DNA from: Raillietiella orientalis
Lineage: Eukaryota
Assembly: GCA_036172245.1 (NCBI GenBank)
Contig: JAYWIR010000070.1
Location: 420,529 to 440,528, forward strand
Reading direction: 5' to 3'
Length of the DNA stretch: 20,000 nt
In this document: one piece after another, positions 1-19,500 of the stretch
Layout of the letters: every line of letters starts with the position of its first letter
Position numbering within the stretch: the first letter of the stretch is position 1
Position numbers and translations under genes: made by a program
Notes under the pieces: generated by a model
What the model was told of the DNA's origin: nothing
Database searches by the model: none
Seen by the model: the letters and a program-made list of their open reading frames with translations, nothing else

Positions 1-1506
1 GCAAGTGAAACTTGCCTTCCAGGAACGGGCCGATCGCCGTCTCGACTTTTTGGAGGCAGCTGGACCACGCTTCCGCAGGTGAGTAGTCCCCCAACAGCAC
101 ATCAAGGTACTTCAGGCACCTCGCCGTGGGTATCCCCAGACGGACCAAGTCCTGCTGCCCTGCCCACGCCGCACCTACTGGCACCACCGACGACTTCGCC
201 CTGTTGACCTGCAGTCCGGTCCCGCGGATGAGCAGATCGAAGAAGTCTCCGACCGCCTTCGCCGGGGTGGACATAGGTAACAGAAGCAGAAGGTCGTCGG
301 CATAGGCTGCTACGGCGGGCGTGCCGGGACACGAGCTCGGCAAGGAGGCCAAAGGCACCCTGTAGGCCTTCAGCACCAACTCAAAGTAGGTGCTGAAGAG
401 CAGGGGACTGAGGCTATCACCCTGCCTGGTGCCCCGCCGCACCGGCACGCCATACAACTTCTGAATACTGAAAGAGATGGAGATAATCGCATTCCGCCAG
501 CAAGAGCGCAGGTAGGTAATCAAGGAGGGTGGGAAGCCCATGCGACTTAGGAGCTCCAACAAAAGCTCCTGGTCAACACAGTCGAACGCCTTATGGAGAT
601 CGACTGCGAGCGCTAAGGCCCCCTTCCCCGCCCGGGAGTCCATTCCCTGCCCTGCTGGCGGCCCCAAAGTGGGGTTGCCGATTTTTCCTTTCTTTTCCTT
701 TTGACACCTCTGCGGGTGCATCCATGTGCTCGCGAAGAAGAGGTTGGCATCCATACTTCGCCCGGGAACATCATATGTCTGCTCCGGGCTAATAATGGAT
801 TCTGCCTCCTGCCCCAGACGCGAAGCCGATAGCCCGGCAACCAACTTGGCGTCCGTATTCACAATCGTGATCGGACGCCAGTTGTTCAAATTCCTAAGGT
901 CTCCCCCTTTCGGAAGGAGCCTCACTCTGGCTGACCGAAACGAGGCGGGAACATCGCTTCGTCTCGGATCAGCCTTGTCAGCTGAAGCAGCAGGGGTGCC
1001 AGCTCTTCCGCGAAGCTCTGATAGAACTCCGCGGGCAAGCCGTCTTCCCCTGGAGCTTTCCGCCTCTTGAGCCTTTTGATACCGGCGAGAATTTCGGCTG
1101 TGGTAAAAGGCTCATCGAGGCTTAACGACTTCTCCTCCCCTATTGCCGCGGCACCATCCAAAAGCAAGAGCCGAGAGGCATCTTGATCCGGAAGCGCCCT
1201 GGCGTAAAGGGAGGAATAATAACTCCGCACGAGATGCCGTACCGACGCCGGGGACGAACATTCCCGGCCCTGGTCGTCCAGCAAGCTGGCCGACCCGGAT
1301 TGCCAGGCTTGGCGTTCGTCCCCGGCACGGTACTCGGCCAGGCGACGGACATTAGGGGTTCTCTCGTACCTACGAGCCTGTAAATAGGCCCGATGGTTGC
1401 GAGCACCCTCGCCGAATCCGGGGGGCAGGCGATCCAGGAGGAACTGCTTGCAGAACTCCCGGACCGATTCCTTAAAAAGGTCCCAGTCCTGGAGATTCCG
1501 GAGCGT
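1..1506 (-). mobile_element. E1: L1/Tx1-like LINE, outermost host; only the ORF2 linker-RT part is visible and it runs off the left edge
   Basis: Minus-strand translation gives TLRNLQDWDLFK...KRRKAPGEDGLP...NWRPI...DLHKAFD...RQGDSLSPLLF...YADD. Similarity to E3 stops at ~1506, where the E2 5' UTR begins (junction uncertain, ~1497-1507). Confidence 0.92.
1..1506 (-). pseudogene. E1 ORF2 fragment (EN-RT linker and reverse transcriptase)
   Basis: One 1-nt deletion near 957 (IRDE|GDVPASF). Otherwise open to the window edge, with YADD intact at 293..304. Interrupted upstream by E2. Confidence 0.9.
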
Positions 1507-1510
1507 CGAG

Positions 1511-1533
1511 CGGACGTGTCTTTTCGTTGCTCC
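1511..1533 (+). promoter_or_regulatory. Conserved 5'-terminal motif CGGACGTG-N10-GCTCC (candidate internal promoter)
   Basis: The same two boxes occur at the 5' ends of E4 and E3 in otherwise dissimilar UTRs. Function is inferred. Confidence 0.55.
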
Positions 1534-1588
1534 TGAGTTCCATTTCCGTTGGTGCTTGTGCGTGGTGTGGGTGGAGGATTAGGCAGAA

Positions 1589-3232
1589 ATGCCTGATACC
1601 ACCACCGGTGAGGATCCGGGGGCGATGACCTCATTGCCCCTTGAGCAGATGGAGGTGGAGGCTCCCGCATCAGTGGAGGCACCCGCCAGCACGGATGCGC
1701 CCCCGGCCCTACCCAGGGCTTGGAACGCCGTGGCTGCGGCACCTACGCCAGCGGCTATGGCGGAAATGCGCGCTTACCTGGAGGAAAGGTATAACCCACC
1801 CCTCCTATATAAGGTAGGCGGTTTATATTCTTCCGAGAACACGCGCGCCTTTTCGCAGGCGATGCGCGTTCTCGGTGTACAGAAAGAGGAGCTTCTGGCT
1901 ATGTCCGTCAGAAGCGGGGGTCAATTTGTGGAAGTTATCTGCAAGGAGGCAACTCTTGCGCAAAGACTTCTGCGAACCCCCGTAATTATGGGCAGCCGGA
2001 GGCTTCTCCCCATTACTGAAGACCGGTCGGTGATCATTCACCTGACCGGTATCACGTTCCCGATGACGAAGGAGGCCGTCCGGAACGAATTAGAAAAATC
2101 TGCAACTGTCCACGCGCTGTGGGGAAAGCCTACTCGTTTTGTCGATTACGACGGGGTGCTTGGCGGCCTGGGTGCAGCGCGAGTGACGGTTCGCGAAGGA
2201 TGTGAGTTTCCCCACAAACTCAGCGTCAACGGTGAATCCGTTGACGTGTGGTACGTGGGGGAACCCAAGTATTGCGGCTGCTGCAGCAGCTTCGGTCACC
2301 TTAAAATGAGGTGTCCGAGCGTGCAGTGCCAGCAATGCAAACAAGCGGGGCACACCCGTCTGGTGTGCCCCCAAAACACAGTCCGCGTAGTGTCCGCGAA
2401 AAACGCGAGAATGCGCGCGGCTAAAAAGAGAAAGAAGCTGGCAACTCGTGCTGCTGCTAAGGAGGTCACATCCGCCACCAAGGCGAAGGCCAGCCCCGAG
2501 ACCCCGGCGAAAACCGCCGAAAAGGTCGAGGGCGAGGGTCAAGAGCCAGGGTGGCAGAAGGTCGACCCCAAGAAAAACTCCCATAAGAAGGGAAAGAACG
2601 TGGCGAAACGGAGCGAAACCGCTCTGCGTCGCGAAAAAATTAAAAGCTGCTGCGTCGTTGTAGAGCGGATTCCCGCCATCGACGAATGCGGCGCTAAAGA
2701 ACTCGCTGCTGCCCCTGCTCAACCCTCCGTTGACAAAGTCAACAAGGAGGGGAGCGAGGCGGCGGCGTCCGTCATCGAGCCCACGCTCGATGACGTCGCC
2801 TTCGAGCGCGCCGCGGAGGAGCTGGCTGCCTCGCTGCAGCCGGTTGCCCCCAAGGCTGGCAAGAAGGCCGTCAGGCGTCCGGCTTCCCCTCAAGAGTCGG
2901 CCACTTTCGACCCCGAGGTGAAGGCTGGAAACACAGCATCCATCTCCGCGGCACCCCGCAAAAAGGCAGGACGAAAGTCCACAATGCTCCGGAAGATCGT
3001 CTCCCCCGACGAAGGGGAAGAGATGGCTTCCGGTAGCGAAGGTGCCATGAGCGTGGGAAACTCCCGGGACCCGTCGCCCGAGAGAATTCCACGCTCGGAC
3101 ACGGAGGGGATGGTGAGGATGGAGGACGAACAGGTACCCCAGGCGCCTGAAGAGGCCTCCGTCCTCGTACCGATGGACCTGTCCTACACCTGCCCCGCGG
3201 CAGGTGCCGCGACGCCACTTTCCCAGCCATAA
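1589..3232 (+). CDS. E2 ORF1p, gag-like nucleic-acid-binding protein with two CCHC zinc knuckles (547 aa, intact)
   Basis: CGCCSSFGHLKMRC and CQQCKQAGHTRLVC (CX2CX4HX4C), basic low-complexity C-terminus, located directly upstream of the endonuclease ORF. Confidence 0.9.
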   Translation: MPDTTTGEDPGAMTSLPLEQMEVEAPASVEAPASTDAPPALPRAWNAVAAAPTPAAMAEMRAYLEERYNPPLLYKVGGLYSSENTRAFSQAMRVLGVQKEELLAMSVRSGGQFVEVICKEATLAQRLLRTPVIMGSRRLLPITEDRSVIIHLTGITFPMTKEAVRNELEKSATVHALWGKPTRFVDYDGVLGGLGAARVTVREGCEFPHKLSVNGESVDVWYVGEPKYCGCCSSFGHLKMRCPSVQCQQCKQAGHTRLVCPQNTVRVVSAKNARMRAAKKRKKLATRAAAKEVTSATKAKASPETPAKTAEKVEGEGQEPGWQKVDPKKNSHKKGKNVAKRSETALRREKIKSCCVVVERIPAIDECGAKELAAAPAQPSVDKVNKEGSEAAASVIEPTLDDVAFERAAEELAASLQPVAPKAGKKAVRRPASPQESATFDPEVKAGNTASISAAPRKKAGRKSTMLRKIVSPDEGEEMASGSEGAMSVGNSRDPSPERIPRSDTEGMVRMEDEQVPQAPEEASVLVPMDLSYTCPAAGAATPLSQP

Positions 3233-4118
3233 TGCCGGGAATCGCCTCTCCCCGTCGTCTTCTGATCACCTGTTGGAACGTGAACGGGCTAAGCGACGAC
3301 GGCAAGAGGCGTGACGTGGCCGCCACCCTGGCATCCTCCGACCTGGTGCTGCTGCAGGAGATCCATGTGATCTCCGCAGATCAAGCCCGGGAGATCGAAC
3401 GGATCTCGGATGGGCGGCTGTTGTGGCGTTGCGGCACCTCGAAATCAAGCGGTGTCGCCTTCCTGCTTCGGCCAGCCATCGAGACCGCAATAAAGGACGT
3501 TCGGTTCGATGACGCAGGTCGCGTCGGTCAGCTGACTCTCAGCTGGTCCGACTCTATCAACCTGGTCGTCACCAACCTATACGCTCCTAGCGGAAACAAC
3601 GCGTTGAGGGCGAAGGCAAGAAGGGAATTCTACCTTGCCCTGAGACGCGATTGGCTGACCGATGCAGGAGTTCGCAAAGCGGACCTGATTGCAGGTGATT
3701 TCAACCTGCGCCTGCTTTCAGGTGCGCCGGATACACTGAACAACCGCGTCAAAGAGTTGGGCGCAGAAATGAACGCGCGCAACTTGTTGGCCGGGGACAC
3801 GGCCATGGAAAGCAGCATCGATCACGTGTACCTTGACCAGCACCTATGATCTCGGGTGGGCAGGCGCGTAAAGGTACCATCCGAGCTGTCGGACCATGGT
3901 CGGATCATGTTCAAATGCGTCCGCGCGACAAGGGCCCCCCCTCGTCAGCGTGGCGTCTGCCAGGGGACTGGCTGAAGTTTCCCGACGCAATGGAGCACCT
4001 CCGCGAGTTTATTCGGAGCTTCAGGATGCAGACACTTCAGGACTGGGACCGCTTCAAGCGGTCGGTCCAGGAGTTTTGCGACCAGTTCCCCCTGCATCGC
4101 CTACCTGAGGGATTTGGG
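3232..4118 (+). pseudogene. E2 ORF2 N-terminal part (APE endonuclease and start of linker)
   Basis: WNVNG, LQE, NLYAP, GDFN, SIDH and SDH motifs. In-frame TGA at 3847..3849 and a frameshift near 3912. ATG overlaps the ORF1 stop (TAATG). Confidence 0.9.
4107..4118 (+). repeat. Target-site duplication of E3, left copy GAGGGATTTGGG
   Basis: Matches GAGGGAGTTGGG at 15617..15628 (11/12). Joining the flanks gives LPEGFG-KGAHNEKAYL, homologous to LPPGFGEGARNHRAYL in E1 and E3. Confidence 0.8.
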
Positions 4119-4336
4119 GTGTCCACCTGGGTACTCCCGTGGCGTTTATTGTATAAAACTCTACAAGAAAACGTGGTACAAGGCCCCACTAACGGCCACA
4201 CAACACCGGACCTGCCGGGACGCCGGGACGCAGCCCAGCGTGACGCTCTTCGCCAGTGGAGGGGGATGGGGATCAAAACAAAATTAAAAAATGAAAATAA
4301 AGGAAAACAAAAAGAGTTTGGAGGGAGGGGAAAGAA
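4119..4336 (-). terminator. E3 3' UTR: T-rich tract, stem-loops, AATAAA plus terminal hairpin
   Basis: Element sense ends AATAAA-CGCCACGGGAGTACCCAGGTG-GACAC and then the TSD. No poly(A). Confidence 0.7.
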
Positions 4337-7300
4337 TCACGTTCCACTTAGAGGAGGGTCCAACCCTCGCAGGATGCCCTCCAGGTCCATCTTCATGCTT
4401 CCCAGATGGGGCCATCTCGCTGCTCTCCGCATGAAGCAGACCGCATACGGGATGACATCCCTCACGTTGGCATCCACTTCTTCGTCGCGAATGTCGCTCC
4501 ATGCCGCCACGATGCCCCGGATATAGCAGAGGGCTGGGAGGGCTGCGGCAGGCTGCAGGGCGTCACGCACGAAGAGGGGCCGAAGAACGTCTCTGGGCGC
4601 TCTGCTTGTTGGGAGCCCGAAGGTCGTCCCGAACCGTTCCCACAGGGGACGGAGGGCAGCACAGTCAACTAGTAGGTGGGGAAGCGATTTGTGCTCTCCA
4701 CACCTTGCACACTCAGGCCTTACACTCCCCCGCATCCAGTGGAAGCGGCGCGCGTTGCAGGGTAGACCCCAGTGCAACAGTAGCAGCCCCGACTCTTGCC
4801 ACTTCAGGGGGAGAAGCCTGGATCCTATCAGATTGGGGGCCACTTGAGGTCATCCGTCGGGATGCCGAGCAGCTCGCCCCATCGACGAAGTCCACGAGGA
4901 AGGGTACTCGGGGTCGTGGCATCCGCCAGTTCTCCCATGGTCCAACCGCTCATCTTCTTCTCCTTGCCTGCAATTCGGCAGGAGACTTGCCACTTTGGCT
5001 TGCGGCTGCTTGTTAAAGCCCTTCGGAGAAAGGGCAGGGTCGAAGCTAGAGGGGTGATCTCCGCCCACGTGCTCCTGGCGGGACACTCCAGAGTAGTCCG
5101 CAGTGTGCAGCGGGCGTTGGGGCCGAATCGCAGGCGGTTCCAGTCCGGGGAAGTCTGGAGGTTCAACTTGGCCCACGTCGCAACTGATTCCTCCAGCCAG
5201 GCGAAGAAGTTGGCGGGGCCGCATACCGTCCAGCCGTTGTTTCTGACCAGGGCTTCCATGCGCCCAAGAAAAGGCCACATCTTCTCACCTTCCTGCCGGA
5301 GCACAGGAGGTACGACGCGAGTCCTTGCGTCCTGGACACACGGCTGGCGAGGATTCGGGCCGGAATGCACCAAGGGGTGCTCCATGACTTTGCTGCGATG
5401 GCGAGGGTGCGCCATCGCAGCTGTATTTCCAGGCGCTTTAGCGTCAGGAGGCCGAGACCGCCGTCCCGACGAGGAGCGCATAAATCATCCAGAGGCACAC
5501 GTGGCCTCCCGCTGCCCCAGAGGGCGATGCGGAGTATGTCTTTTGTCCTCTTTTTAATGTCACGGTGGACGGGGCACACAAAAAGCAGGGAACGGAGGAT
5601 GGAAGCCGCGAAGGCGTTCCACACCGCGGCCCGTTCCGGCAGAAGGAACTTGCATTCCAGGAACGGGCCGATTGCCAACTCTACCTTCTCGAGACGACCT
5701 GACCAGGCTTCTGCGAGGCAGAAGTCCCCCAACGGGACACCCAGGTACTTCAGGTACCTGGCCGTTGGGATCCCCAAGCGGATCCAGTCAGGCCGTCCGA
5801 CCCACGTCGCACCCACCGGTACGACCGACGACTTCGCCTTGTTTACCCGCAGTCCAGTCCCACGACTTAGCAGATCGAAGAAATCCTCGACTGCGGCTTC
5901 CGAGGCGGACATGGGCAGCATGAGCAGAAGATCGACGGCGTATGCTGCAACGGCAAGCGTGCCGGGGCACGAGCTGGGCAGGGCAGCCAAAGTCACCCTG
6001 TACGCTCTCAGCACCAACTCAAAGTAGGTGCTGAAGAGCAGGGGACTGAGGCTATCGCCCTGCCGTATGCCCCGCCGCACCTGCACGCCGAACACCTGTT
6101 GGCTGGAAAAGACGATGTTGACAATGGCATTGCGCCAGCATGAGCGCAGGTAGGAGAGAACGGAGCTTGGGAAGCCCATGCGACCCTGGAGCTCCAACAG
6201 TAGCTCCAGGTCTACGCAGTCGAACGCCTTGTGGAGATCGACCGCGATCGCTAGGGCTCCCTTCCCAGCCCGGGTATCTATTCCCAGCCCACCTGGCGGT
6301 TCCAAAGTGGGGTTGCCAATCTTTCCCCCTGTGTCGTTCAGGCAGCGCTGCACATGGAACCATGTGCTCTCGAAGAACAGGTTGGCATCCATACTTCGCC
6401 CGGGAACAGCGTACGTCTGCTCCGGGCTAATTATGGAGTCTGCCACCTGTCCTAGACGCAAAGCCCACAGTCCAGCGATCAGCTTGGCGTCCGTATTCAC
6501 GATTGTGATCGGACGCCAATTGCCCAAGAATCTCAGGTCTCCTCCCTTCGGGAGGAGCCTCACACGGGCTGACCGAAACGAGGCGGGAACGTCGCCTTCG
6601 TCTCGGATCAGCCCGGTCAACTGAAGCACCAGGGGTGCCAGCTCTGCCGCGAAACATTGAAAGAATTCCGCAGGCAGGCCGTCTTACCCTGGCGCCTTTC
6701 GCCTCTTGAGCCTTTTAAAACCGGCGAGAATTTCACCGGTAGAAAAAGGCTCGTCGAGGCTGATCTTCTCCTCTTCCCCTATTGCCGGGGCTCCATCCGA
6801 AAGCAGGAGCCGCGAGGCGTTCCGCTCTGGGGGTGCCCTAGCGTAGAAAGAGGAGTAATAACGTCGCACGAGGTGCCTGATCGCGGGTGGTGCGGATCGC
6901 TCCCGGCCCTGGTCGTCCAGCAAGCTGGCCGACCCGGATTGCCAGGCTTGGCGTTCGGCCCCGGCTCGATATTCCGCGAGGCGACGGACATTCGGGGTCC
7001 TCTCGTACCGGCGGGCCTGTAGATAAGCCCGATGGTTCCGAGCCCCCTCCCCGAATCCGGGGGGCAGGCGGTGCAGGGGAAACTCCTCGCAGAACTCGCG
7101 GAACGAGGCCTTGAAGAGGTCCCAGTCTTGGAGACTGCGGAGGGTGACACCTCTTAGGATTTCGCGAAGGTGTTCTTTCGCACCTGTGAGCTGCGTCCAG
7201 TCCCCAGGCAGCCGCCACGCCCTGGACGGGGGTCCTTTGTCGCGCGGGCAAACCTCGGCGATGATCCTGGAATGGTTCGACAGCGTCGACGCAACTTTTC

Positions 7301-7754
7301 CCCGTTTGCAAACCCGCGAGCACAGGTCGACATCCAGGAAGAAGTGGTCGATGCTGCGGTCCATTCCCTCCGCGTCTGCCAACAAGTTGCGCGTGCGCAT
7401 GGCAGCGCAAAACTCGTTGGCCGTGCGTTCTTGTGCTTCGGGCTCACCTGACAGCAGACGGAGATTGAAGTCTCCAGCTATCAGGTGTGCCTTCCGCACA
7501 TTCGTGTCGGCCAGCCAATCGCGCTTCAAGGTTTCCAGCAGCCTGGTACGGTCGCTGTATCCCCCTTTTCCGCTCGGGGCGTACACGTTCGTGACGATCA
7601 ATTCGATCGAGTCGGACCAGCTGAGAATCAGCTGACCGACCCTACCGTCGTTATCGAAGCGTACGCCCTTCACGGCAGCGTCGATGGCCGGCTTGACGAA
7701 GAACGCGACCCAGCAGGTGTTGCGGGCGCCGCATCGCCAATACAGTCGACCCCC
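4337..7754 (-). pseudogene. E3 ORF2 (endonuclease remainder, RT, CCHC)
   Basis: ORF-track pieces 6684..7988, 5163..6629, 4828..5481 and 4337..4843 chain together. TAA at 6684..6686, frameshifts near 5270 and 4838, catalytic motif mutated to YAVD (5931..5942). Confidence 0.92.
7742..7754 (+). repeat. Target-site duplication of E4, left copy ACAGTCGACCCCC
   Basis: Identical 13-mer at 13579..13591. Excision restores EIEAIAGGRLYWRC in frame on the minus strand. Confidence 0.93.
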
Positions 7755-7763
7755 TCCATTGTT

Positions 7764-7785
7764 CGGACGTGCATTCTTGCGCTCC
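7764..7785 (+). promoter_or_regulatory. Conserved 5'-terminal motif CGGACGTG-N9-GCTCC
   Basis: Starts at +10 from the TSD-defined 5' end. Shared with E2 and E3. Confidence 0.55.
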
Positions 7786-7844
7786 GTCTTTGGTGCTTCT
7801 TTGCGGTTGTTCCTTTTGGGTGCGGTGGGATTTTTCATTTGGAA

Positions 7845-9782
7845 ATGAAGCCAGTGCCCGCAGAAATGGAGGTGGAGGAATCCCCCTGCGCCGCAGGACC
7901 TTCTTCGGGAGGAGCGGAAGCCTCCACCGATCGTCCCTCGCCTCCAGCGAGAAGTTTTGCCGCCGTTGCTAAGGCAGCGGCGGCTCACGGAGCCCCACCC
8001 GACGAGGCAGAGCTGCGGGCGTACGCCGCGAGCGGCTACAACCCCCCTCTGGCCTACAAGGTCAGTGCCGCGTACCGGGATGGGACGGGCAACCAGCTCT
8101 GGAGCGAGCTAGAACGCGTAGGGGTCCGAGAGGACGATCTCCTGGCAATTATGCCAGTGAGCGCGGTAGGCCATTGGGAGGTGCACTGCAAGGATGCAGC
8201 CCTCGTCCAGCGCCTACTGCGAACCCCCCTGAACATCAGGGGTAAGGAGGTCGTCCCCTCGGCCCTGGATCAATCGTTCGTGGTCCAGCTCTCGGGAATT
8301 AGGCCGAGAATAACGGACCGCGACATCATTGTTGCACTCGAGGCGTTCGCCACAGTGCACGCGATGTGGAGGCGCGCGAACCCGATCGATAAAGTCCCGC
8401 GCCTCTCCTGCGGACTTGCGACGGCGCGCGTCACCATGGACGACCGGAGGCTCATGCCTTCGCAGATCCTCCTCGGTGACGTCGTCGTCTATCTCCGGTT
8501 TGCCGGGCAAACCCCCGCTTGCGGCAACTGCGGGAAGGAGGGCCACCGTCCGCGGAAGTGCCCAACACGCAGTTGCCGATACTGTAAGCTGCTCGGCCAC
8601 TCGATTAACGAGTGCGCCGAGCTGAAACGAAAGAGGAGGGCGAGAAACCCCCCCGCAACATCGCCGTCCGCGCCGACTCCATCCGCCCCGTCGTCGGGGA
8701 AGAAATCAGGCGCGAACGAGCATTCTCAGCGGAGAAGTGAAAAGTCCGCTTGCGCGGGCGATTCTTGGAGCAATGCTCCACAAAAACCCGCGCGAAAGGA
8801 CAAGGAGCTCCTCCAGGCTGCTTCAGTAAAGCCCCGAGCGACCCAGCCCGCCGATAACATCGGGCAGGCTGCAAAAATAGCACCGCCGCTTCCGTCCGCT
8901 CTCGCTCCGGAGCGAAATAGCGGTGGCACGCCCGGGAAGACCACCGGAGCGTCGAAAAAGGGGTCGCGCGCCCCTTTGCCCGCGACAGGCAAGCCGGCCA
9001 CGGCGGGCCGAACGCCAGCAAAGGCTGAAAAGCCTCGCGCGACACCCGAGAATCCCGCCACTGTGCCCGCACCTCCCGGTAAGGAGGTGCAGAAGGCAGA
9101 CGTGGCGAAGGAGACACTGGCCTCAGTCGCCGTATCCGAGGCCTTGGAAAGGATGCGAAGGACCCTGGAAGCCCTCGCGCCCAACCGGGGCAAACAGGAA
9201 GGCGGCGAGGATGGCTGGACCTTCGTCGGGGGAAAGAAGGAGCGCAAACCGCGCGATCCTTCCCACTTCCCGATCCAAAAGGTAGGCGGGGTGAAGAGGC
9301 AACCCCGCGCGCCCAGAAAGGCGCAAGGACAAGCCTCTGCTGCCGCCGCGCGCGCCGCCGCAAACACCCGCGGCGAGAGGGGAGCTGCCGAAGCCGTGAC
9401 CCCGAAAGGGGGATCGGCGACGAAGGCACCCTCGAAGAGTGCTGGACCAGCTCCGGGCTGCCAGCAAACAAAGAGGCAGGCGAAACGCCCGCCGCCGCGC
9501 GCGCGCAATTCGGACTCCGAGGTGGAGTCCGAGGGCAGCGCTAAGGCTCGCCAAGCCCCGGTCAAGGCCAGGGCTGCGCGCAAGCCAAAACTTGCCAGGC
9601 AAGAGCCTGATGCCGGGAACGGTTCCCGATGCTCCTCGGAGCCCGAGGCAATGGTCCTCGACTCGACCAAGCCGGCCGCGAGCGGCGCGGCGGGGACAGG
9701 AAGCGCTTGCGCTACCTCATCCGCCGTGCTCCCGGCTGATGCCTCGCCGGACGGGGCGAGGAACGCACCTCCATGTCCGTAG
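7845..9782 (+). CDS. E4 ORF1p with two CCHC zinc knuckles (645 aa, intact)
   Basis: The first ATG inside the element is 7845; the track start at 7485 lies in host E3 sequence. CGNCGKEGHRPRKC and CRYCKLLGHSINEC; YNPPLAYKV is homologous to E2 and E3 ORF1. Confidence 0.88.
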   Translation: MKPVPAEMEVEESPCAAGPSSGGAEASTDRPSPPARSFAAVAKAAAAHGAPPDEAELRAYAASGYNPPLAYKVSAAYRDGTGNQLWSELERVGVREDDLLAIMPVSAVGHWEVHCKDAALVQRLLRTPLNIRGKEVVPSALDQSFVVQLSGIRPRITDRDIIVALEAFATVHAMWRRANPIDKVPRLSCGLATARVTMDDRRLMPSQILLGDVVVYLRFAGQTPACGNCGKEGHRPRKCPTRSCRYCKLLGHSINECAELKRKRRARNPPATSPSAPTPSAPSSGKKSGANEHSQRRSEKSACAGDSWSNAPQKPARKDKELLQAASVKPRATQPADNIGQAAKIAPPLPSALAPERNSGGTPGKTTGASKKGSRAPLPATGKPATAGRTPAKAEKPRATPENPATVPAPPGKEVQKADVAKETLASVAVSEALERMRRTLEALAPNRGKQEGGEDGWTFVGGKKERKPRDPSHFPIQKVGGVKRQPRAPRKAQGQASAAAARAAANTRGERGAAEAVTPKGGSATKAPSKSAGPAPGCQQTKRQAKRPPPRARNSDSEVESEGSAKARQAPVKARAARKPKLARQEPDAGNGSRCSSEPEAMVLDSTKPAASGAAGTGSACATSSAVLPADASPDGARNAPPCP

Positions 9783-9787
9783 CAGCA

Positions 9788-12700
9788 ATGCGCGGTCTCG
9801 CTTCTTCCCGTCGCGTCCGAGTGGCCTGTTGGAACGTCAACGGGCTGCAGGACAACGAGAAGAGGCGATTGGTTGCCAACGTCTTGCGCGACTTCGATCT
9901 GGCCCTGCTGCAGGAGATTCACGCACTCTCCGAGCAGCAAGCGGCCGATCTGCAAGTTCGCGCAGGCGGGACGCTCCATTGGAGGTCAGGCTCCCAGAAT
10001 ACCTGCGGAGTCGCATTCCTTGTCCGGGGCAGGGTGGCGGGAGCGGTGCGGAGCGTTTGTTTCGACGAGGAAGGTCGTGTGGGCCAACTTGTTCTCAAGT
10101 GGTCCGAATCGATCAACCTTGTCGTCACGAACGTGTACGCGCCGAGCGGCTCCGCGCGTCACACCGAGAAACTGGAGTTTTTCGAGAGACTGCGCGACCG
10201 CTGGCTCAGCAACTCCGGCCCCGACGTGGCTCACCTCGTAGCCGGGGACTTCAACGTCCACGCGCTATCGGAGGAGTCTCACCGTCGCCGGGAGAAACGG
10301 CTGGTGAACGAGGTGTGCGCGTCGGTGCACGCCTCGAATTTGCTGGCCGACGATCCCGGAATGCGTGCTTTGCCGGACCATGTGTTCCTCGACGATCACC
10401 TGCATTGCCGGGTGGGTCGAAGAGGTCCCGTGCCGTCCGAGCTTTCCGACCACTACAGGCTGGAGTTTGAGCTACTCCCGTCTGGCAAGGGCCCACCGAC
10501 GAACGTCTGGAGGTTGCCGGCCGACTGGTTGAGAAATCCGGTGGCTGCGGAGCACCTCCGCCAGCATCTTCGGACCTTTGCCGTTCGAGAGCTCGTGGAC
10601 TGGGACGATCTGAAAAGATCGGTCCGCGAGTTCTGCAGCCGGTTCCCCTTGCGCCTGCTTCACCGTGGCTTCGAAGAAGGCGTGGCCAACAGCAGAGAGT
10701 TTCTGCAGGCCCGCCAATTCTTCCGATGCCCGGACGTCCGGTACCTTGCGGAGTACAAGGCCAAGGCCGAGCGCCAGGTCTAGCAGTCAGGAGTAGCTTG
10801 TCTGCTCGACGACCAGGGCCTGGAGTGCTCGGGCGCGGCCGAAGTTCGCCGCCTCCTAAAGCGCTATTACTCCTTGTTGTACGCTAGGAAGCCGACGGAA
10901 CGCAGTCTCTCGGAGCTGCTTCTGCCGGCGGATTCCCCGGCGGTCGACGAGGAGGAACGCGCCACTCTTGACTTGCCCTTCACGGCGGAAGAAGTGTCTT
11001 CCGCCATAGCGGGCCTCAAGAAGCGCAAGGCGCCAGGTGAGGATGGTCTGCCTGCGGAGTTCTTCCAGTGCTTCGCGGCGGAACTCATCCCTTTGGTACT
11101 GAGGCTTTCTGCGCTGATGCGAGAGACGGGCAATGTCCCGGCCTCGTTTCGCTCAGCAAGGGTGCGTCTGTTGCCGAAAGGCGGAGACATGCGCCATTGA
11201 AGCAACTGGCGTCCCATCACCTTGGTGAATGCGGACGTCAAGTTGTTCTCCAGGCTGTGGGTCGCGCGCCTGGGCAGGATCGCTGGATCCGTGGTAAGTC
11301 CGGAGCAGTCTTACGCTGTTCCCGGGCGGTCCATGGAGGCGAACCTGTTCTTCGCGCGCACGTGGCTCGAACTGCAACGCTGCGTGGCGCACGACAGCCA
11401 GGCAACCGCGTCTGCGGCTGCCGAGGCTAGGCGTAGCTGCATTCGGCCTGGGGAAGCGCCGGGTGCCTTGGCGGTCGCGGTCGATCTCCGCAAGGCGTTC
11501 GATTGCGTAAATCAGGATCTCCTGCTGGAGCTCCTGGAACGCCTCGGTCTCCCGGTGCACCTCGTGGCGTATTTGCGCGCTTGCTGGCGCCACGCGCTCA
11601 TTTCCATCTCTTTTAGCGGCTGCCACGTGTACGGCGTGCCGGTGCGGCGGGACATCAGGCAGGGCGACAGCTTAAGCCCGTTGCTCTTCAGCATCTTCTT
11701 TGAGTTGGTGCTGAGGGCGTACAGGCTGACGCTGGCCAACCTGCCGAGCTCTTGTCCAGGAACGCCGTCCGTGGCGGCCTATGCTGACGACCTGCTCCTC
11801 CTCTTACCCATGACCACCCCGGCATCCAGTCTCGAGGAGTTCTTCGAGCTGATTCGCCGGGGAGCGGGCATGAGCGTAAACCGGAGCAAGAGCGTGGTCG
11901 TACCTATTGGTGCGGCGTGGGAGGGGCAGTCCGACTGGATCCGCCTGGGGATCCCGACCGCTTCCTCCGTGCAATATCTGGGCGCTTCGCTGGGGAACAT
12001 CAGCCCAATGGAAGTGTGGTCGGACTGCCTTCGGAAGGCTTCGAATGCCCTGAGCCCGTTCCACCATGGCAGGTTCGTCCTGCCGGAGCGGGCCACGATA
12101 TGGAACACATTCGTTGCCCCTCTCTTGCGCCCCCAGCTTTTTGTTTGCCCGCCCCCCTACTCGGCCAAGCTCCAGGCGCACAGCCTGTTAAGGAACGCTC
12201 TTTGGGGACCTGCGAGGTCCAGGATCCGCCTCAAAGACTTGGCGGCTCCGCGTCGGGATGCTGGCTTAGGCATCCTGACGCTGGAGAGAATCGAGCTGCA
12301 GGTGCAGCTTCGGATGTTGGCCCTGTGCGCCAACCTTTGGTCCACTCCGTGGTGCGCTCCCGCGCGCCTGCTTCTGCGGCGCTGCACAGGCAGCGATGGA
12401 CTTCTGTCGCTGCGGCCGCACACGGAGCGCGCCACGAGAAGCTTCGGTTCCCCCTTGAAACCGCTGTATCGGCTCCTGGAAGCCCAGGGATGGATCTCCT
12501 GCCGCCCAACGAACTTTCAAGCCTGGCGGCAGGAACCGTTGCATGGCTGGGCAAAGCACCAGGATGTTTCCCTCCTGGAACTCCGTTGCGCTCACCTCTC
12601 CCCGTATTGCACGGTGGATGAGGTGTGCAACAGCCAGGAGAAGTGGACCCGCCTGGCCGTCACCCCCCTCGAAGACGCACTGTCAGCCCTCAGGGCAAGA

Positions 12701-13350
12701 GATGACAGTTGCGAACCGGCGAGATGGGAGGTCGCCTGCACCATCGCAGGAACAACGCGACCTATTGGCGGCTGGAAGACTTGCGAGCTGGCGGACGCCG
12801 CCACGCCTCGCCACGTTCCGAAGGGACTCCTTCGGTGGAGCGAACACTTAAGTGTGCCCCCCGAAGAACTTGTGGTCCCTCCCTCTTGTCTGAACACTTC
12901 TGTGTTCCCCCTTTCGTGGAAGCAGGATGTGATTATGCTGGTGCATTGGGGTTTTCACTCCAACCAGCGCACGAACCTTGTTTCCGGGGGAGTCGTCTCC
13001 CCAAACTGTAAGCGGTGCGGGGAAGTGGAAACGCTCTCGCACCTGCTCCTGGACTGTGGTGCCCTTCTAGGACTCTGGCGGAGGCTGGCCTCAGCTCTCC
13101 TGCACCAGGGGGACACCGCGAGGGAGTTGATGCGCCGCTTCTTCACGCCAGGCGGCCTGTCATTGGGTGCTGTCGTTGCAACCGTGTGTTGCACCCGCGC
13201 CATCGCAAGGCCCACCGAGAGTTGGAGAAGCTGGCCATCCTTCGTCAGCCCACCGGATTAGCCAGCGCAAACATGTCGTCGGCTGCCCAGTGGGCCCATC
13301 TGCCACAGGGCGTAAGGAGAGAGATCGCCGGCATCCATCGCCGGTTTTGA
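9788..13350 (+). pseudogene. E4 ORF2: APE endonuclease, reverse transcriptase, C-terminal CCHC; three lesions
   Basis: One frame with TAG at 10781..10783 and TGA at 11198..11200. YADD at 11780..11791; CKRC...HLLLDC. Frameshift near 13205, after which AAQWAHL...EIAGI matches the E3 and E5 C-termini. Alternative ATG at 9773. Confidence 0.92.
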
Positions 13351-13578
13351 AAGGAAGGAACGGATTTACCAAAGACCCCTGTCCCCTGCCCTCCAGATTT
13401 TTCTTTTATTTTTTTATATAGTAGTGTGTTTGTGGTCCCTTCCCTCCCGTTCCGGACTTTCGGCATACCGACCTGCGTGTCGGGGATCCCACCCCCTTCG
13501 TCTCTTGTTTTCCCCTTTGTCCGGGAACCCTGTTCCCGGATAGTTTATAATAAACGCCCCGGCGCACCCGGGTGACAA
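13351..13578 (+). terminator. E4 3' UTR: T-rich tract, perfect 9-bp hairpin, AATAAA plus terminal hairpin
   Basis: TCCGGGAAC-CCT-GTTCCCGGA at 13520..13540; AATAAA at 13549..13554; CGCCCCGGCGCACCCGGGTG at 13555..13574; ACAA and then the TSD. Confidence 0.72.
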
Positions 13579-13591
13579 ACAGTCGACCCCC
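13579..13591 (+). repeat. Target-site duplication of E4, right copy
   Basis: ACAGTCGACCCCC, identical to 7742..7754. Confidence 0.93.
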
Positions 13592-13768
13592 CGCGATCGC
13601 CTCGATCTCCTGGACGTCTGCCGAGGTGATCACGTGGATCTCCTGCAGCAGGGCCAGGTCGAAGTCACGCAGGGTGTCGGCCGTATCTCGTCTGTTGCCG
13701 TCGTCGCGCAGCCCGTTGACGTTCCAACTGGCCACGCGGATTCGACGGCGACAGGCGAGCCCAGGTGT
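13579..13768 (-). pseudogene. E3 ORF2 N-terminus (endonuclease WNVNG...LQE); start codon position reads ACA
   Basis: TPGLACRRRIRVASWNVNGLRDD...LLQEIH...IAGGRL aligns with E2 MPGIASPRRLLITCWNVNG. Confidence 0.88.
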
Positions 13769-15519
13769 TATTCCTGGGAAATCGGCTGTGCGGCGTCCGC
13801 CATCTGTTGGGGCGGGACGCTAGGTGGAGGAGGAGGGACAGGTGCCTCTAGCACCTGGTCACCCTATTCCATCGGTGACGGCGCGTCGGGCGGGTCACCC
13901 TCCGGTGGGGTCGCGCCTACCTGCTGGCCCTTCTCCATAGGGGTGGGCTCCTCAGGGTCCGCGACGACAGGGGGGATTTCGACCCCCTGCTCACCCTCCT
14001 TCATGGGGGTGTCGTGCTCGACGGCTTCCGCGCGTGGGAGCTCCCCCTCCGGGATTCCCACGCTGCCGGCGACTTCCTGCTTCTCCTCCTCGCTCGTGGA
14101 GGGGAGGCGCTTCCTCTGCTTTTGGGAGTTGCGTCCCGTCTTCCGGGTGGGTGCCTCCGAGGAGGAGGATGCACTTCCGGCCCCCAGTTCTAACTCACCT
14201 GCGGGGGCCTTCTTTACTGGAGCCGGGCTTCGCACGGCCTTGCGCGAGGGGTTCTCACGCTCAGCCAGCGTGGCTGCGAGCTCCTCCGCCGCCTTCGCGA
14301 AGGCGGCGTCCTCGCCGGCGGCGAGCGCGTCGCGCGTCTTACCCTCTGTGCAAACAGAGGGTTCGACGTCGCGAACCTCGGGCGCGGCGGAAAAGGCGAG
14401 GGGAGGCTCGTCGCTCCGGGTGGCAGCCTCGGGAACGCTGATGCGCTCCAGTGCTACCGAGCACTCGCGGAGAGTTTGAGATCGCGGACCAGGTTTTTTC
14501 GCCTTCGCGACCGTGTTTTTCTCCGCCTTTTCTTGTGAACCCTTTTTGGGTTCTTTTGTGGCCTTTACCAGCTTCCATCCTTCTTCCTCGCCCGCGTCTT
14601 TCGCTGTTTTTTCCGCCGCCGCCTGGGTTGGAGGAGGAGGAGAAGGCTGCTGGGGCCGGCCATTCTCGCGATGAGGTCTTTCGACCTTATTCATCTTTTT
14701 CGCCTGTGCCTTTTTAACAGCAGGTGGCACAGGGGTGGGGCGTTTAGGGCACACATGACGGACGTGTCCCTTTTCCCCGCACAAGTGGCACTCGATATTC
14801 GGGCACCGCATGCGCACATGCCGTACTGCATCGCAGTAGCCACAATAGCGGGGTTTTCCCACGTACCAGAGGTCGACGGGCTTCTTCCCGACCTCCAGTT
14901 TGTGGGGTAACCCAGCACCCTCGTTCACAGTGACACGCGCTGCTGCCTGGCCACCAAAGAGGCTGTTATAGCTATCAAAAATGGTTGGCTTAGGCCACAG
15001 CGCGTGCACATCTCCGTATTTCCTCTATTCCGCGTTCACCGCAGAGCGCGTCATGCGGTTCGTGATCCCCGTTAGATGGACCACTACGGAGCGGTCCATG
15101 CTAACGGATAGGATCTTTCGGCCAGCCACATTCAGCGGGGTGTTGATGAGGCGCTGCGCTAGGGCTACGTCTTTGCAGACGACCTCCACGCGTTGCCCCC
15201 CGCTGAGTACGGCGAGGCCGTCAAGATCCTCCTCACGCACGGGGAATTCCTGTAGTGCCTTGCTAAAGGCACGCGCGGTGCGACCGTCGAACAGGTTTCC
15301 CACCTTATAAACCAGGGATGGTTTATATCCGGAGGCCCTGTAGGCCGCTTGCTCAGCCAAGGTTTCCGCGCTCGGCGCGGCGACCATGGCGCTCCAGCTC
15401 CTCGTCTTGGGCGACGAGGGCGATTCCGGGGCGGGTGCCCCTGATTCTGTAGGTCGTGGGAGGGGGCTAGCCTCCCTCACGCCTACCTCCATCGTGGTGT
15501 CCTCTGGCAGCGATGCCAT
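13768..15519 (-). pseudogene. E3 ORF1 with two CCHC knuckles and two in-frame stops
   Basis: ATG at 15519. TAG at 15025..15027 and 13864..13866 in the same frame. Natural end AQPISQE* resembles E2 ATPLSQP*. CGYCDAVRHVRMRC and CHLCGEKGHVRHVC. Confidence 0.88.
13850..14012 (-). repeat. Degenerate 66-bp (22-aa) tandem repeat in the E3 ORF1 C-terminus
   Basis: TPMKEGEQGV / TPMEKGQQV / SPME*GDQV, with ATGs at 14004, 13938 and 13872, exactly 66 nt apart. Confidence 0.75.
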
Positions 15520-15583
15520 CGGACACCAACGATGTGAAAAAGCACACACTGAACCAAAAAGCCGCTTTCCGCTGCTCGTTCGC

Positions 15584-15606
15584 GGAGCGCCGGAAAAACA
15601 CGTCCG
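15584..15606 (-). promoter_or_regulatory. Conserved 5'-terminal motif CGGACGTG-N10-GCTCC
   Basis: Starts at +11 from the TSD-defined E3 5' end (15616). Confidence 0.55.
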
Positions 15607-15616
15607 CTCTCGAGGA

Positions 15617-15628
15617 GAGGGAGTTGGG
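15617..15628 (+). repeat. Target-site duplication of E3, right copy GAGGGAGTTGGG
   Basis: 11/12 match to 4107..4118. Confidence 0.8.
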
Positions 15629-16351
15629 AAGGGGGCTCATAACGAAAAAGCTTATCTATAGGAACGTCGTAACGCGAGAACCATCAACTTCCGTCGCCTG
15701 GCCGACTACAAAGCCGAGGCTGAGAGCCAAGCTTGGAAGTCCGGACCACACACCCTGCTGGACAGCCAGGACCGCAAACACTCGTCCCCGTCAGCGATTC
15801 GACACATGGTGAGAAAATTTTATTCCTTTCTATATGCCAGGTCTCCTCTCAAGCAGGACGCCTCGCGACTGTTGCTCCCGGAAGGAGCCCCGGTCATAGG
15901 GGAGGAAAAGAAAGAATGCCTCGACGAGCCATTTGAAAACGATGAAATCGTCACCGCGATGAAAGGGCTAAAGAAAAGAAAGGCACCAGGAGAGAAAGGC
16001 TTGCCCGCGGAGTTTTCTCAAGGCTTCGCGGCAGAGTTAACCCCTTTGGTGCACAGATTGACACAGCTGATCCTGGAAGAAGGCGATGTTCCCGCCTCGT
16101 TCCGGTCAGCTAGGATGAGGCTCCTTCCTAAGGGAGGAGACCTCCTTAAGCAGACATACGCTGTTCCTAGGCGAAGTATGGAGGCTCACATGTTCCTCGC
16201 CAGCACATGGTTCTATACGCAAAAAGAAAGTAAAGAACGCAAGGGATCTCTCGGTTACCTCCATTTAAGAGTGACAGCTGGTCAGAATGGGAAAAGCCTA
16301 GCGGGTAAAGGTGCCCTAGCGATCGCAGTCGATCTTCATAAAGCGTTCGAT
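15617..16351 (+). pseudogene. E2 ORF2 middle part (linker to RT motif DLHKAFD), interrupted by E5
   Basis: KGAHNEKAYL*...KKRKAPGEKGLP...LLPKGGDL^QTYAVP...VDLHKAFD. TAG at 15659..15661 and a ~108-nt in-frame deletion near 16145. Confidence 0.87.
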
Positions 16352-16568
16352 TTTCACCAGGATTTCGCCAGGGCGTTAATTGTTTAATAAACCTCTACAA
16401 AGACGTGCAATCGCTGGACCATTGCTCCAGCCACGAAGGAAGAAACACAGAGCCTGCCGGGTCACCGGTTCGCAGATCGGTACGGTCCACCACGGCAGCA
16501 AGAGGAAGGAGGAAAAACAAGAAACAAAACAAAAACGAAAACAAAAGTTACGAGGGTAAGGAAAGGGA
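16352..16568 (-). terminator. E5 3' UTR with T-rich tract, stem-loops, AATTAA plus terminal hairpin
   Basis: Element sense ends AATTAA-CGCCCTGGCGAAATCCTGGTG followed by only 2-4 A. Confidence 0.68.
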
Positions 16569-19500
16569 TCACAGTTGCTGGTGGGGCCTTTGCATCCTTT
16601 GCAGGATGCCGGCAAGCTCCTTCTGTATTCCTGGATCCAGGTGGGGCCATCGAGACGCCCTCCTTAGGAACTCGAAGGCTGGCTGGATGGCACCCTGGTG
16701 GCATTGTCCTCCCGTAGCCTTGCTCTAGGCGCTGACGATCCGGCGTAGGCAGCACAAAGCTGCTAACGAGGCCGCAGGCCGAAGGGCGTCGGCAACGAAG
16801 AGGGCTTTCAGAGCGTCCCTGGGGTTGCCGCAGGGGATTCCGATGCCCGCGGCAAAGCCGAACCAAAGGGGTCGAAGGGCAACACAATCCACTAGAAGGT
16901 GGGGGAGGGACTCCCGTTCCCCGCACCTTACACAATTGGGATCCACCGCTCCCCAGGTCCAGTGGTGTCGACGAACGTTGCAGGGGAGTACCCAGTGCTG
17001 AAACAGGAATGCCGACTCTTGCCATTTTAAGAAGAGGGTGGAGGTGTTCATTAGTACCGGGGGCTACTTCAAACCATCAATGGGAACGTCGAGCAGCAAG
17101 CCACAGCATAGAAGTCCATGGGAAGGCGTACTAGGGGTGGCAGCGAAAGTCAGCTGACCTTTCTTCCACTATCCTATCTACTTCTCCTTCCCGAAGATTG
17201 TTACTGTAACCTCCCACTTCGCCGAAACATCGCTGTCCAGATCTTCCATTAGGGAGGGCAGCGCAGCAGCGAGGGGGTTCTTCCTGCCCACGCTCTTTTC
17301 TTTGGATCCGCCAGGATGTCGCAGAGCGTGCAACTTCTGTAACCCGCAAACAGGAACCTTCGTTCCTGTTGGGAGGGTTGCATGCCGAACTGTCCCCACG
17401 TTCGAACGGTTTCCTGCAACCAGGCACTACCGTTCAAAGGGCGACAGGTGACCAATCCTGGGTTTTCCCGGTACAGCGCAGCCACCCTCCGTAGCTGGAG
17501 TCCGCATCGGTTGACGCGACGATGGAGTAGAAGAAACGACGTCAGTCCCGTCTTGCCAGTGGCTTGCTGGAGAAGGAGACGTGCAGGGACGCACCAACAG
17601 GTGTACCACAACTCTGGAACCAGTGCCGAAATTCGGAACTGGAGCTGAAGCTTCAGCCGCTCCAGCGTCAGGAGGCTTAGACCACCGTCCTGACGAGGAG
17701 CACACAAGTCCTTTAAGCGGACTCGGGCCCTCCTGTTGCCCCAAAGGGCGATACGAAAGATGTCCTTCGTCCGATTTTTAATTCTCTCTGTGGGGGCAAA
17801 CAAAAAGCAGCAAGCGGAGGAGAGGAGCCGCGAACGTGTTCCAAACTGCGGCCCGTTCAGGCAGGGAAAACCTGCTGCCTCGGAACGAACCGATCGCCGT
17901 CTCGACTTTTTGGAGGGAGCCCGACCACACTTCCGCAGGGGAGTAGTCCCCCAACGGCAGACCAATGTTTTTGAAGTACGTCACCGTGGAGATCCCCAAA
18001 CGGACCCAGTCCTGCTTCCCTGCCCACGCCGCACCGAATGGCAATACGGACGACTTCTCCCTGTTCACCGTAAGTCCGGTTCCCCGATGCAGCAGGTCCA
18101 ACAATTCCTCGACCGATGCAGCCGGGATGGACATAGGGAGCAGCAGCAGAAGGTCGTGCGCGTACGCTAAAACGGCCGGCGTATCGGCACAGTCGTGCGG
18201 CAGGTGCGTCAGAGTCTCCCTGTACGTTCTCAGTACCAACTCAAAGTAGGTGCTGAAGAGGAAGGGGAACAGACTGTCTCCCTGCCGGATCCCACGCCGC
18301 ACCGGCACGTCGTGCACAATCTGCCCGCTGAAAGAAACGTTGATTAGCGCGTCGCGCCAGCAGGAGCGCACATAGGCCACTAATAAGGCCAGGAAGCCAA
18401 GCGTTCCAGAATCTCCAGAAGGAGATTCTGGTCGACGCAATCGAATGCTTTCCGCAAGTCGATTGCGACCGCAAGGGCTGCCTCTCCCACCCGACCATCC
18501 AATCCCTTGCCGGCGCACGCACGGGAATTCCGGCTGCGCACCAAGCTTCTTTCATGTTGGAGCTCGAACCAGGTGGAAGCGTGGAACAGCTTCGCCTCCA
18601 TGCTTCGCCCGGGAACAGCATATGACTGTTTCCGGCTTCAGAAGATGTTGGCAACCCGTCCTAGACGCTCTGCCAAAAGCTTAGTCAGCAGCTTGACGTC
18701 CGCATTCACTACTGTGATAAGACGTCAGTTGTTCATGCTCCTCAGATCTCCTCCCTTAGGGAGAAGCCGCACCTTTGCCGAACGAAACGAGGCGAGAACG
18801 TCACCTGTCTCGCGTATCAGCAAGGTGAGTTGCTGTACCAAGGAAGAAAGGTCAGCCGCGAAAGTTTGGTAAAACTCCGCGGGCAGGCCGTCCTCCCTTG
18901 GAGCCTTTCGCTTCTTGAGTTTTACGATGGCCGAGAGGATCTCGTCCATCGTGAAAGGCTCGTCGAGGGTCTTTCTCTCCTTCTCCCGATCGCTGGAGAG
19001 CCTACCGGAATCATAGGTCGTGAGACGTTCCTCTCGAAAGGTGCCCTAGCATACAGGGAGGAGTAGTAACTTCGCAGCATGCCGCGGATTTAAGCAAGTG
19101 CCGAGTGCTCCTGGCCCTCATCGTCCTGCAAGCTTGCCGATCCGGACTGCCAGGCTTGCCTCTCGGCTCCCGCTTTGTATTCCGCCAGCCTGCGGATGTC
19201 GGGGGTCCTGACGAAACGACGGGCCTGCAGGTAGGCTTGTTCGATACGAACCGCGGTCCAAAAACCCGTAGATAGGCGGTGCAGAGGGAACTGTTCGCAG
19301 AACTCCTGGACCGACCGCTTGAAGCGGTCCCAATCCTGGAGTGTCCGCAGCCTGAAGTTCCGTATGAACGTGCGGAGATGCTCCGCCGCGTTCGGAAGCT
19401 TCAGCCAGTTTCCTGGGAGACGCCACGCCGACAAGGGGGGGCCCCTGTCGCGCGGATGGATCTCGACGACTAGCGGGCGATGGTCGGACAGCTCGCACGG

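Follow-up and report, generated by a model that had tools for sequence, protein, structure and literature searches.

Antisense insertion of LINEs has already been given a published, transcription-linked cause in the case of human L1. Servant, Streva and Deininger (2017; PMC5717806) describe how nicks in the coding strand of transcribed DNA lead to antisense L1 inserts, and in their account the bias arises at insertion and not through later selection, with TCR-NER, not recognition of R-loops, as its cause. A second comparison is with Zepp and ZeppL of green algae (PMC3446292, PMC8226300), L1 clusters in which GC-rich LINEs accumulate nested in their own kind, and whose Zepp arrays consist, in the account of Craig et al. 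(PMC8226300), mostly of 5′-truncated 3′ ends. Antisense self-nesting of LINEs was not encountered among the papers listed by the literature search. A Paramecium preprint that came up there deals with Helitrons.

The locus analysed here, a 20-kb stretch of DNA referred to in full as the window, shares with the human L1 bias (PMC5717806) the geometry of a coding-strand nick and an antisense insert. It differs in that the bias described there concerns host genes and many de novo insertions, whereas the targets here are LINE copies and four events are read from sequence alone. With Zepp and ZeppL (PMC3446292, PMC8226300), compared by their described features, it shares nesting of the copies in their own kind, here five copies, four deep, occupying the whole 20-kb window, and a high GC content (61% for Zepp, 58–63% for the copies here). 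In contrast to the mostly 5′-truncated arrays (PMC8226300), all three visible 5′ ends in the window, those of copies E2, E3 and E4, are full length and reach a conserved 5′ terminus (E2 if its end is set at 1497).

A tblastn map resolved the whole window into five diverged copies of a single APE+RT LINE lineage, about 45–78% identical in amino acid sequence and 65–80% in DNA, the identity between insert and host being 65–71% over long alignments. The copies form a nest four deep, E1(-) > E2(+) > E3(-) > E4(+), with E5(-) also inserted in E2, as follows:

1–1506, minus strand: E1, the outermost copy, linker and part of the RT (from the tblastn map)
1507–4118, plus strand: 5′ part of E2, with 5′ UTR, ORF1, endonuclease and linker, ending at the target-site duplication (TSD) copy 4107–4118
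1589–3232, plus strand: ORF1 of E2, open
4119–7754, minus strand: 3′ part of E3, with the rest of the endonuclease, linker, RT, C-terminal CCHC region and 3′ UTR; 3′ end at 4119
7755–13578, plus strand: E4, full-length (5824 bp), innermost and least decayed
7845–9782, plus strand: ORF1 of E4, open
9773–13261, plus strand: ORF2 of E4, with two in-frame stops and zero frameshifts
13579–15616, minus strand: 5′ part of E3, with 5′ UTR, ORF1 and start of the endonuclease; 5′ end at 15616
15617–16351, plus strand: continuation of E2, with the E3 TSD copy 15617–15628, linker and start of the RT up to ...VDLHKAFD
16352–20000, minus strand: E5, with 3′ UTR, C-terminal region, RT, linker and part of the endonuclease; 3′ end at 16352

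Once un-nested, E4 measures 5824 bp and E3 5661 bp. E1, which carries one frameshift and is 78% identical to E3 in amino acid sequence over the RT, is cut short on its 3′ side by the edge of the window, and the rest of it, towards the 5′ end, presumably lies past the 3′ end of E2, outside the window. E5 is heavily decayed (seven stops and four frame changes), and its 5′ part is likewise off the window.

The encoded proteins carry an apurinic-type endonuclease N-terminal to the RT within one ORF, the arrangement of APE-type non-LTR elements. Pfam searches identified PF03372 (E=2.1e-17) and PF00078 (E=4.1e-20) in E4, and PF00078 (E=1.2e-19) in E3. Two CCHC knuckles are present in ORF1, and a CX2CX7HX4C motif follows the RT in the translation, where PF13966 scored 19.2 bits (E=0.002), short of its cut-off of 27.5 bits. 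Among solved structures in the PDB, L1 ORF2p proteins ranked as the best relatives (E=1.2e-12), with R2 close behind (2.3e-11); the ESM Atlas neighbours had the RVT_1+zf-RVT architecture, and the RT shared no more than 41% identity with any named protein. The lineage is poorly sampled and appears, by the PDB ranking, to be L1-like. It resembles L1/Tx1-type LINEs in the APE and RT and the ORF1 zinc knuckles, with a candidate zf-RVT-like motif at the C-terminus, and differs from them in its 3′ ends, which have a defined terminus and no poly(A) tail.

Relatives in the contig collections were distant. The metagenome_contigs scan returned 157 relatives in 401 stretches, the best 80 of which were only 23–34% identical; the genome_contigs scan found relatives in two of 47 stretches (25–26% identity), and none of the 127 stretches of the viral_contigs scan contained one. 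Close matches in protein searches amounted to two fragments, P0001 and P0003. Since the three collection scans yielded no close relatives, the number of events could not be enlarged beyond the window.

The four flanking strings reported in the original prediction were all located at their junctions in the sequence, which read as follows:

7742–7754 and 13579–13591, plus strand: TSD of E4, ACAGTCGACCCCC, 13/13 identical, around E4 (7755–13578)
4107–4118 (3′ side) and 15617–15628 (5′ side), minus strand: TSD of E3, CCCAAATCCCTC / CCCAACTCCCTC, 11/12 identical, around E3 (4119–15616)
16340–16351, minus strand: 3′ junction of E5, ATCGAACGCTTT, immediately past the 3′ end of E5
1494–1506, plus strand: 5′ junction of E2, GATTCCGGAGCGT, immediately before the 5′ end of E2

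Both sides are proven for E4 in E3 and for E3 in E2; E5 in E2 shows its 3′ junction and E2 in E1 its 5′ junction, the opposite sides lying outside the window, and the E2-in-E1 junction also falls outside the interval considered originally (4107–16352). Removal of the inserts restored a continuous reading frame in E2 (...HRLPEGFG/KGAHNEKAYL) and in E3 (...EIEAIAGGRL/YWRCG). As in LINEs, the inserts are flanked by TSDs (13/13 and 11/12) and lack terminal repeats; no LTR-like repeats were present among the repeat families found in the window. Twin priming or recombination as the source of the inversions was rejected on the ground that E3 and E4 are each a whole, separate element with a TSD on either side.

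At 80% likeness or more, comparison of the window with the DNA run X1 (share 0.12), the one run listed as carrying this sequence and with no RNA run in that listing, gave 726 contig pieces, 25 of them at 99% or above and 96 at 95–99%. The 15 of 40 X1 joints that were inspected were mostly switches between paralogous copies (e.g. 5638 to 1, 11246 to 18622), and no empty site for E3 or E4 was found among them. One X1 joint, 703 to 13398, has 34 T-rich letters between its two parts and might represent a truncated tail of the E4 type within an RT of the E1 type; as the strand of this joint was not given, it was left out of the event count.

The element termini are conserved at both ends. A 5′ motif, TCC/CGGACGTG, is common to all three visible 5′ ends (E2, E3 and E4), which in E2 requires a 5′ end at 1497; with the preferred end at 1507 the TCC motif falls within E1, and the first few bases of E2 are missing. 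At the 3′ side, an AATAAA-like signal and a CGCC..GGTG element are found in all three visible ends:

13549–13578, plus strand: 3′ terminus of E4, conserved, with AATAAA, then a short stem (CGCC..GG / CC..GGTG) and no A tail
4119–4152, minus strand: equivalent 3′ terminus of E3
16352–16385, minus strand: equivalent 3′ terminus of E5

The poly(A) or A-rich tail of the L1 superfamily is absent from all three, whose 3′ ends (...GGTGACAA, ...GGTGGACAC and ...GGTGAAA) abut the TSD or host directly.

All four inserts lie antisense to their hosts. The original prediction held that the priming nick is always on the host sense strand, and its reasoning is correct in that, under target-primed reverse transcription (TPRT), an antisense insert means that the host sense strand was the primer. 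The antisense orientation is therefore real as an observation in four of four events, but as a rule it is unproven: the one-sided probability of such a run by chance is p=0.0625 (1/16), the two-sided one 0.125 (1/8), and with n=4 the run is within easy reach of chance. A replication-fork (lagging-strand) bias was rejected as an explanation, since a fork model predicts one absolute orientation and the orientations here alternate (-,+,-,+,-). All four insertion sites are in ORF2, at different places (approximately residues 69, 274, 298 and 577 in E4 numbering). Two of them are about 24 residues apart, a spacing with an estimated chance of about 0.14 that was rejected as evidence of clustering, and a codon-phase pattern of the nicks was likewise rejected (phases 1, 0, 0).

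The predicted lack of a target consensus was borne out at the three nick sites available, which share no motif. When the TSDs were anchored at the nick, one of 12 columns was identical in all three sites, with approximately 0.75 expected. Furthermore, the longest complementarity between insert tail and target was 5 nt in each of three events, a length that 243, 282 and 262 out of 500 shuffles also attained; pairing of the tail with the target was accordingly rejected, being no better than in shuffled sequence.

We consider it somewhat probable that five diverged APE/RT LINE copies make up the window, nested four deep through ordinary TPRT, the antisense run not being shown to be a rule. Each copy would have been placed by an endonuclease that makes two nicks with a 12–13 bp stagger and has little or no sequence preference; reverse transcription would start at the element's own 3′ terminus, guided neither by an A tail nor by target pairing, and would copy the RNA through to its 5′ end. 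The targets would be other copies because the whole neighbourhood consists of such copies, be it a graveyard of LINEs or a Zepp-like cluster that targets itself, and we infer that chance produced the run of orientations. Some observations point the other way: four of four inserts are antisense and in ORF2, in recent full-length hosts, a direction that fits a targeted strand-specific process, and two of three usable nick sites are locally G-rich on the sense strand (40-nt GC-skew percentiles 0.87 and 0.91). None of these is significant individually.

Among the alternatives, a true antisense bias generated by transcription of the host copy together with a repair filter is unlikely but survives best. 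Template-strand intermediates would stall RNA polymerase II and be excised by transcription-coupled repair, and maturation of coding-strand nicks only would leave antisense inserts. The mechanism has been demonstrated for human L1 in genes (PMC5717806), the orientation agrees in all four events, and the hosts E2 and E3 are full-length and retain 5′ ends of their own, so that they may have been under transcription when struck. Against this, the events number four, and transcription of the copies, past or present, has to be assumed.

It is very doubtful that integration of this lineage is confined to transcribed copies of its own relatives, and there to the non-template strand, through recognition of R-loops or of the transcription complex and with no reading of sequence. 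If this were true, every new insert would have to nest antisense in whichever active copy is youngest, each insertion would disable a competitor's ORF2, and self-targeted clusters would grow.

Highly unlikely, in our judgement, is the R-loop model proper, in which the endonuclease prefers the strand displaced by the host transcript or by homologous incoming RNA, so that the sense strand is nicked and the insert comes to lie antisense. The orientation of all four inserts and the absence of a common motif agree with it, and two of the three usable nick sites adjoin runs of G in the sense strand of the host (GGATTTGGG^AAGGGGG and GCGGGGGGTCGACTGT^). R-loop-prone DNA, however, carries G-clusters on the non-template strand, and such composition was not found on the host sense strand by whole-strand skew, G-runs or site percentiles. 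Sense-strand GC skew is 0.002–0.048, and G-runs are rarer than C-runs there (84 vs 122 for runs of at least four; 22 vs 36 for at least five). Around the three sites used (E2 in E1 was left out, its window overrunning the visible host), skew is unremarkable both in 40-nt windows (percentiles 0.87, 0.91 and 0.26) and at 100–400 nt (0.08–0.83). Moreover, invasion by homologous RNA is improbable because the insert–host identity of only 65–71% is too low. The features examined do not favour R-loop- or transcription-guided nicking, and four events are too few to decide the matter.

Hardly credible is a weak strand-asymmetric feature of sequence or composition, commoner on LINE sense strands, that would set orientation through base composition and not transcription. 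The sense strands do show A/T asymmetry in places (AT skew up to +0.39, in ORF1 of E4), and two of three insert-sense TSD ends are C-rich (GACCCCC, ATCCCTC); yet the three nick sites lack a common motif, and G-runs, the sole feature present at two sites, are rarer on sense strands, from which a bias in the other direction would be expected. Least credible of all is unbiased insertion followed by loss of sense nests through direct-repeat recombination, or their under-representation in assemblies: deletion is readier between direct than inverted repeats, but at only 65–80% DNA identity the copies have diverged too far for homologous recombination to be efficient or for an assembly to collapse them.

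The window gives no new mechanism. As it stands, it documents an L1-like lineage whose termini are defined and tail-less and whose nested inserts are full-length, a record useful for repeat annotation. If a strict antisense rule held genome-wide, it would provide a natural example of LINE targeting guided by structure or transcription, and a growth mechanism for self-targeting LINE clusters such as the algal centromeric ones.

Five copies of one non-LTR retrotransposon (LINE) lineage, E1 to E5, fill all 20 kb of the window. Stop-to-stop translation revealed three kinds of product that recur in sets, an ORF1 protein that carries a pair of CCHC knuckles, an apurinic-type endonuclease and a reverse transcriptase (RT) with a C-terminal CX2CX7HX4C motif, and many direct and inverted repeats of 70–89% identity connect distant parts of the window. 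Pfam domains were recognized in the innermost copy, E4 (Exo_endo_phos, E=2.1e-17; RVT_1, E=4.1e-20), and in its host E3 (RVT_1, E=1.2e-19). Copy boundaries were set from the junction sequences and from mapping the pieces onto the window with tblastn:

Copies of the lineage in the window (tblastn map and junctions)
1–1506, minus strand: E1
1507–4118, resuming at 15617–16351, plus strand: E2
4119–7754, resuming at 13579–15616, minus strand: E3
7755–13578, plus strand: E4
16352 to beyond 20000, minus strand: E5

Protein identity among the copies is approximately 45–78%, and DNA identity 65–71% over long alignments (up to 78% in short stretches), values so low that E1–E5 represent different families of one lineage rather than recent daughters of one another.

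The junction sequences quoted in the original prediction were all found in place. E4 is flanked by a perfect 13-bp target-site duplication (7742–7754 and 13579–13591), and E3 by a 12-bp duplication whose two copies differ at one position (4107–4118 and 15617–15628). Removal of the insert and one duplication copy left a continuous frame in E3 (...EIEAIAGGRL/YWRCG; slash, joint) and in E2 (...HRLPEGFG/KGAHNEKAYL), in agreement with the other copies. The conserved 3' terminus of E5 adjoins the RT of E2 at 16351/16352, and the conserved 5' terminus of E2 adjoins the linker of E1 at about 1506/1507; these two insertions are only half proven because the far junction of each lies outside the window. 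All four inserts, two of them fully and two half proven, run antisense to their hosts (p=1/16 one-sided, 1/8 two-sided; p=1/4 for the two fully proven events taken alone). As correctly reasoned beforehand, the primer strand in target-primed reverse transcription (TPRT) becomes continuous with the cDNA, and thus antisense inserts imply that the host sense strand was nicked, at the following sites:

Nick sites (^) on the host sense strand
E4 in E3: GTCGACTGT^ATTGGC
E3 in E2: GGATTTGGG^AAGGGGG
E5 in E2: GCGTTCGAT^
E2 in E1: CCGGAATC^TCCAGG, provided that the duplication is 13 bp

The absence of a target consensus, also proposed originally, was borne out as far as three known sites allow: none is visible, since only one of 12 nick-anchored columns is common to them, against approximately 0.75 expected. 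The insertions lie at different places in ORF2 (residues ~69, 274, 298 and 577, E4 numbering), and the codon phases of the nick sites are 1, 0 and 0. Comparison of each insert's final 40 nt with 30 nt of the primer strand revealed no tail/target complementarity beyond that of shuffled sequences, the longest run being 5 nt every time and equalled by 243, 282 and 262 of 500 shuffles.

The orientation most likely reflects TPRT of the ordinary kind, with weak sequence specificity, in a neighbourhood made up only of LINEs, a reading that we consider probable and in which chance allows the antisense run. A transcription-coupled filter is an unlikely but reasoned alternative, as the same geometry has been published for human L1: in the account of Servant et al. 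(2017, PMC5717806), a coding-strand nick in a transcribed unit yields an antisense LINE, and the antisense bias in genes originates at insertion, is lost in cells lacking transcription-coupled repair and is attributed by the authors to removal of template-strand intermediates. If the bias is real, such a filter is better founded than the R-loop recognition originally put forward to explain sense-strand nicking, which we regard as improbable. R-loop-prone DNA has G-clusters on the non-template strand, whereas the sense strands here lack G-skew (GC skew 0.002–0.048) and contain fewer G-runs than C-runs (84 vs 122 for runs of at least 4; 22 vs 36 for at least 5). Local GC skew at the three usable sites fell at percentiles 0.87, 0.91 and 0.26 in 40-nt windows and at 0.08–0.83 over 100–400 nt, E2-in-E1 being left out because its window ran off the visible host. 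Homologous incoming RNA, already doubted in the original prediction, is implausible as the source of an R-loop with insert and host DNA only 65–71% identical. A strand-asymmetric preference of the endonuclease ranks lower again, and loss of sense-oriented nests after insertion is the most doubtful of these causes. A replication-fork bias would give a single absolute orientation and is contradicted by the alternating orientations observed.

Zepp and ZeppL of green algae are known self-nesting LINE clusters (PMC3446292, PMC8226300); compared by description only, their arrays are depicted as mostly 5'-truncated, in contrast to the full-length nests in the window. A literature search, judged from its listings, returned nothing on antisense self-nesting of LINEs.

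Within a library representing ~15 billion proteins, the only close proteins were two metagenome fragments, P0001 (51–70% identical to the window copies) and P0003 (48–71%), followed by matches of 27–41% identity from a charophyte, a turtle and a pseudoscorpion. The E4 RT (11201–13261) gave only four matches at E<=1e-30 in this library, two metagenome fragments ~60% identical and two others at 27% and 41%; the lineage is very thinly sampled. Contig scans of metagenomes (best 80 of 157 relatives), prokaryote genomes and viruses returned only LINEs of 23–34% identity or nothing. The DNA sequencing run X1 contained 726 related pieces of at least 80% likeness, 121 of them at least 95%, and the joints of its contigs, among those listed, were mostly paralogue-to-paralogue switches. 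One X1 contig joins 703 (E1-like RT) to 13398 (E4-like 3' UTR) through 34 T-rich letters, the joint being given without its strand, and might represent a 5'-truncated E4-like copy in an E1-like RT elsewhere. Each 3' UTR carries a T-rich, microsatellite-like sense-strand tract (13396–13425, plus; 4270–4330, minus; 16500–16555, minus), and X1 contigs leave the window at these tracts, where their loose ends (4281, 4315 and 13415) are AT-rich.

The best solved relative of the RT was L1 ORF2p (E=1.2e-12), slightly ahead of R2 (2.3e-11). The zf-RVT match scored below the Pfam cut-off; the Atlas neighbours have RVT_1 and zf-RVT, and the ORF1 knuckles weakly resemble retroviral nucleocapsid (E about 0.01). 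From this ranking of relatives and domains we call the lineage L1-like, although the A tail, an L1 criterion, is absent from it.

E4 is the least decayed copy, with an open ORF1 and an ORF2 carrying two in-frame stops and no frameshift, which fits its innermost position. Its ORFs overlap by 10 nt (9773–9782) in different frames, the ORF2 ATG lying at 9773 and the ORF1 stop at 9780–9782. E2 retains an open ORF1, and its ORF2 is interrupted by 2 stops and a single frame change along 577 residues. E5, more decayed than its host E2 though necessarily younger, has 7 in-frame stops, together with 4 changes of frame, across ~1050 aligned residues. The source of E5 may already have been defective and mobilized in trans. 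CpG observed/expected is 0.88–1.01 in all five copies, values that give no hint of methylation-driven CpG decay even in this repeat-only context.

E4 measures 5824 bp and the un-nested E3 5661 bp. The motif CGGACGTG near the start is common to the three visible 5' ends (7755, 15616 and ~1507); TCC opens E3 and E4, and opens E2 only with its 5' end placed at 1497, not 1507. E2, E3 and E4 are essentially full length, because the conserved 5' terminus is present in all three. LINEs are commonly 5'-truncated, and full-length insertion in three of three visible 5' ends is unusual among them. The three visible 3' ends are likewise conserved:

Conserved 3' termini
13549–13578, plus strand: E4
4119–4152, minus strand: E3
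16352–16385, minus strand: E5

Each contains an AATAAA-like hexamer 24–27 nt before the 3' end and, after it, a short stem (CGCC..GG / CC..GGTG) whose six pairs are all invariant, so that covariation evidence for it is nil. The hexamer resembles a cleavage/polyadenylation signal, yet the DNA copies carry no A tail, and the three 3' ends adjoin the duplication or host directly. From this anatomy, reverse transcription seems to be initiated from a defined terminus recognized by the protein; the lineage would then combine a 'stringent' LINE style with 12–13-bp staggered nicking.
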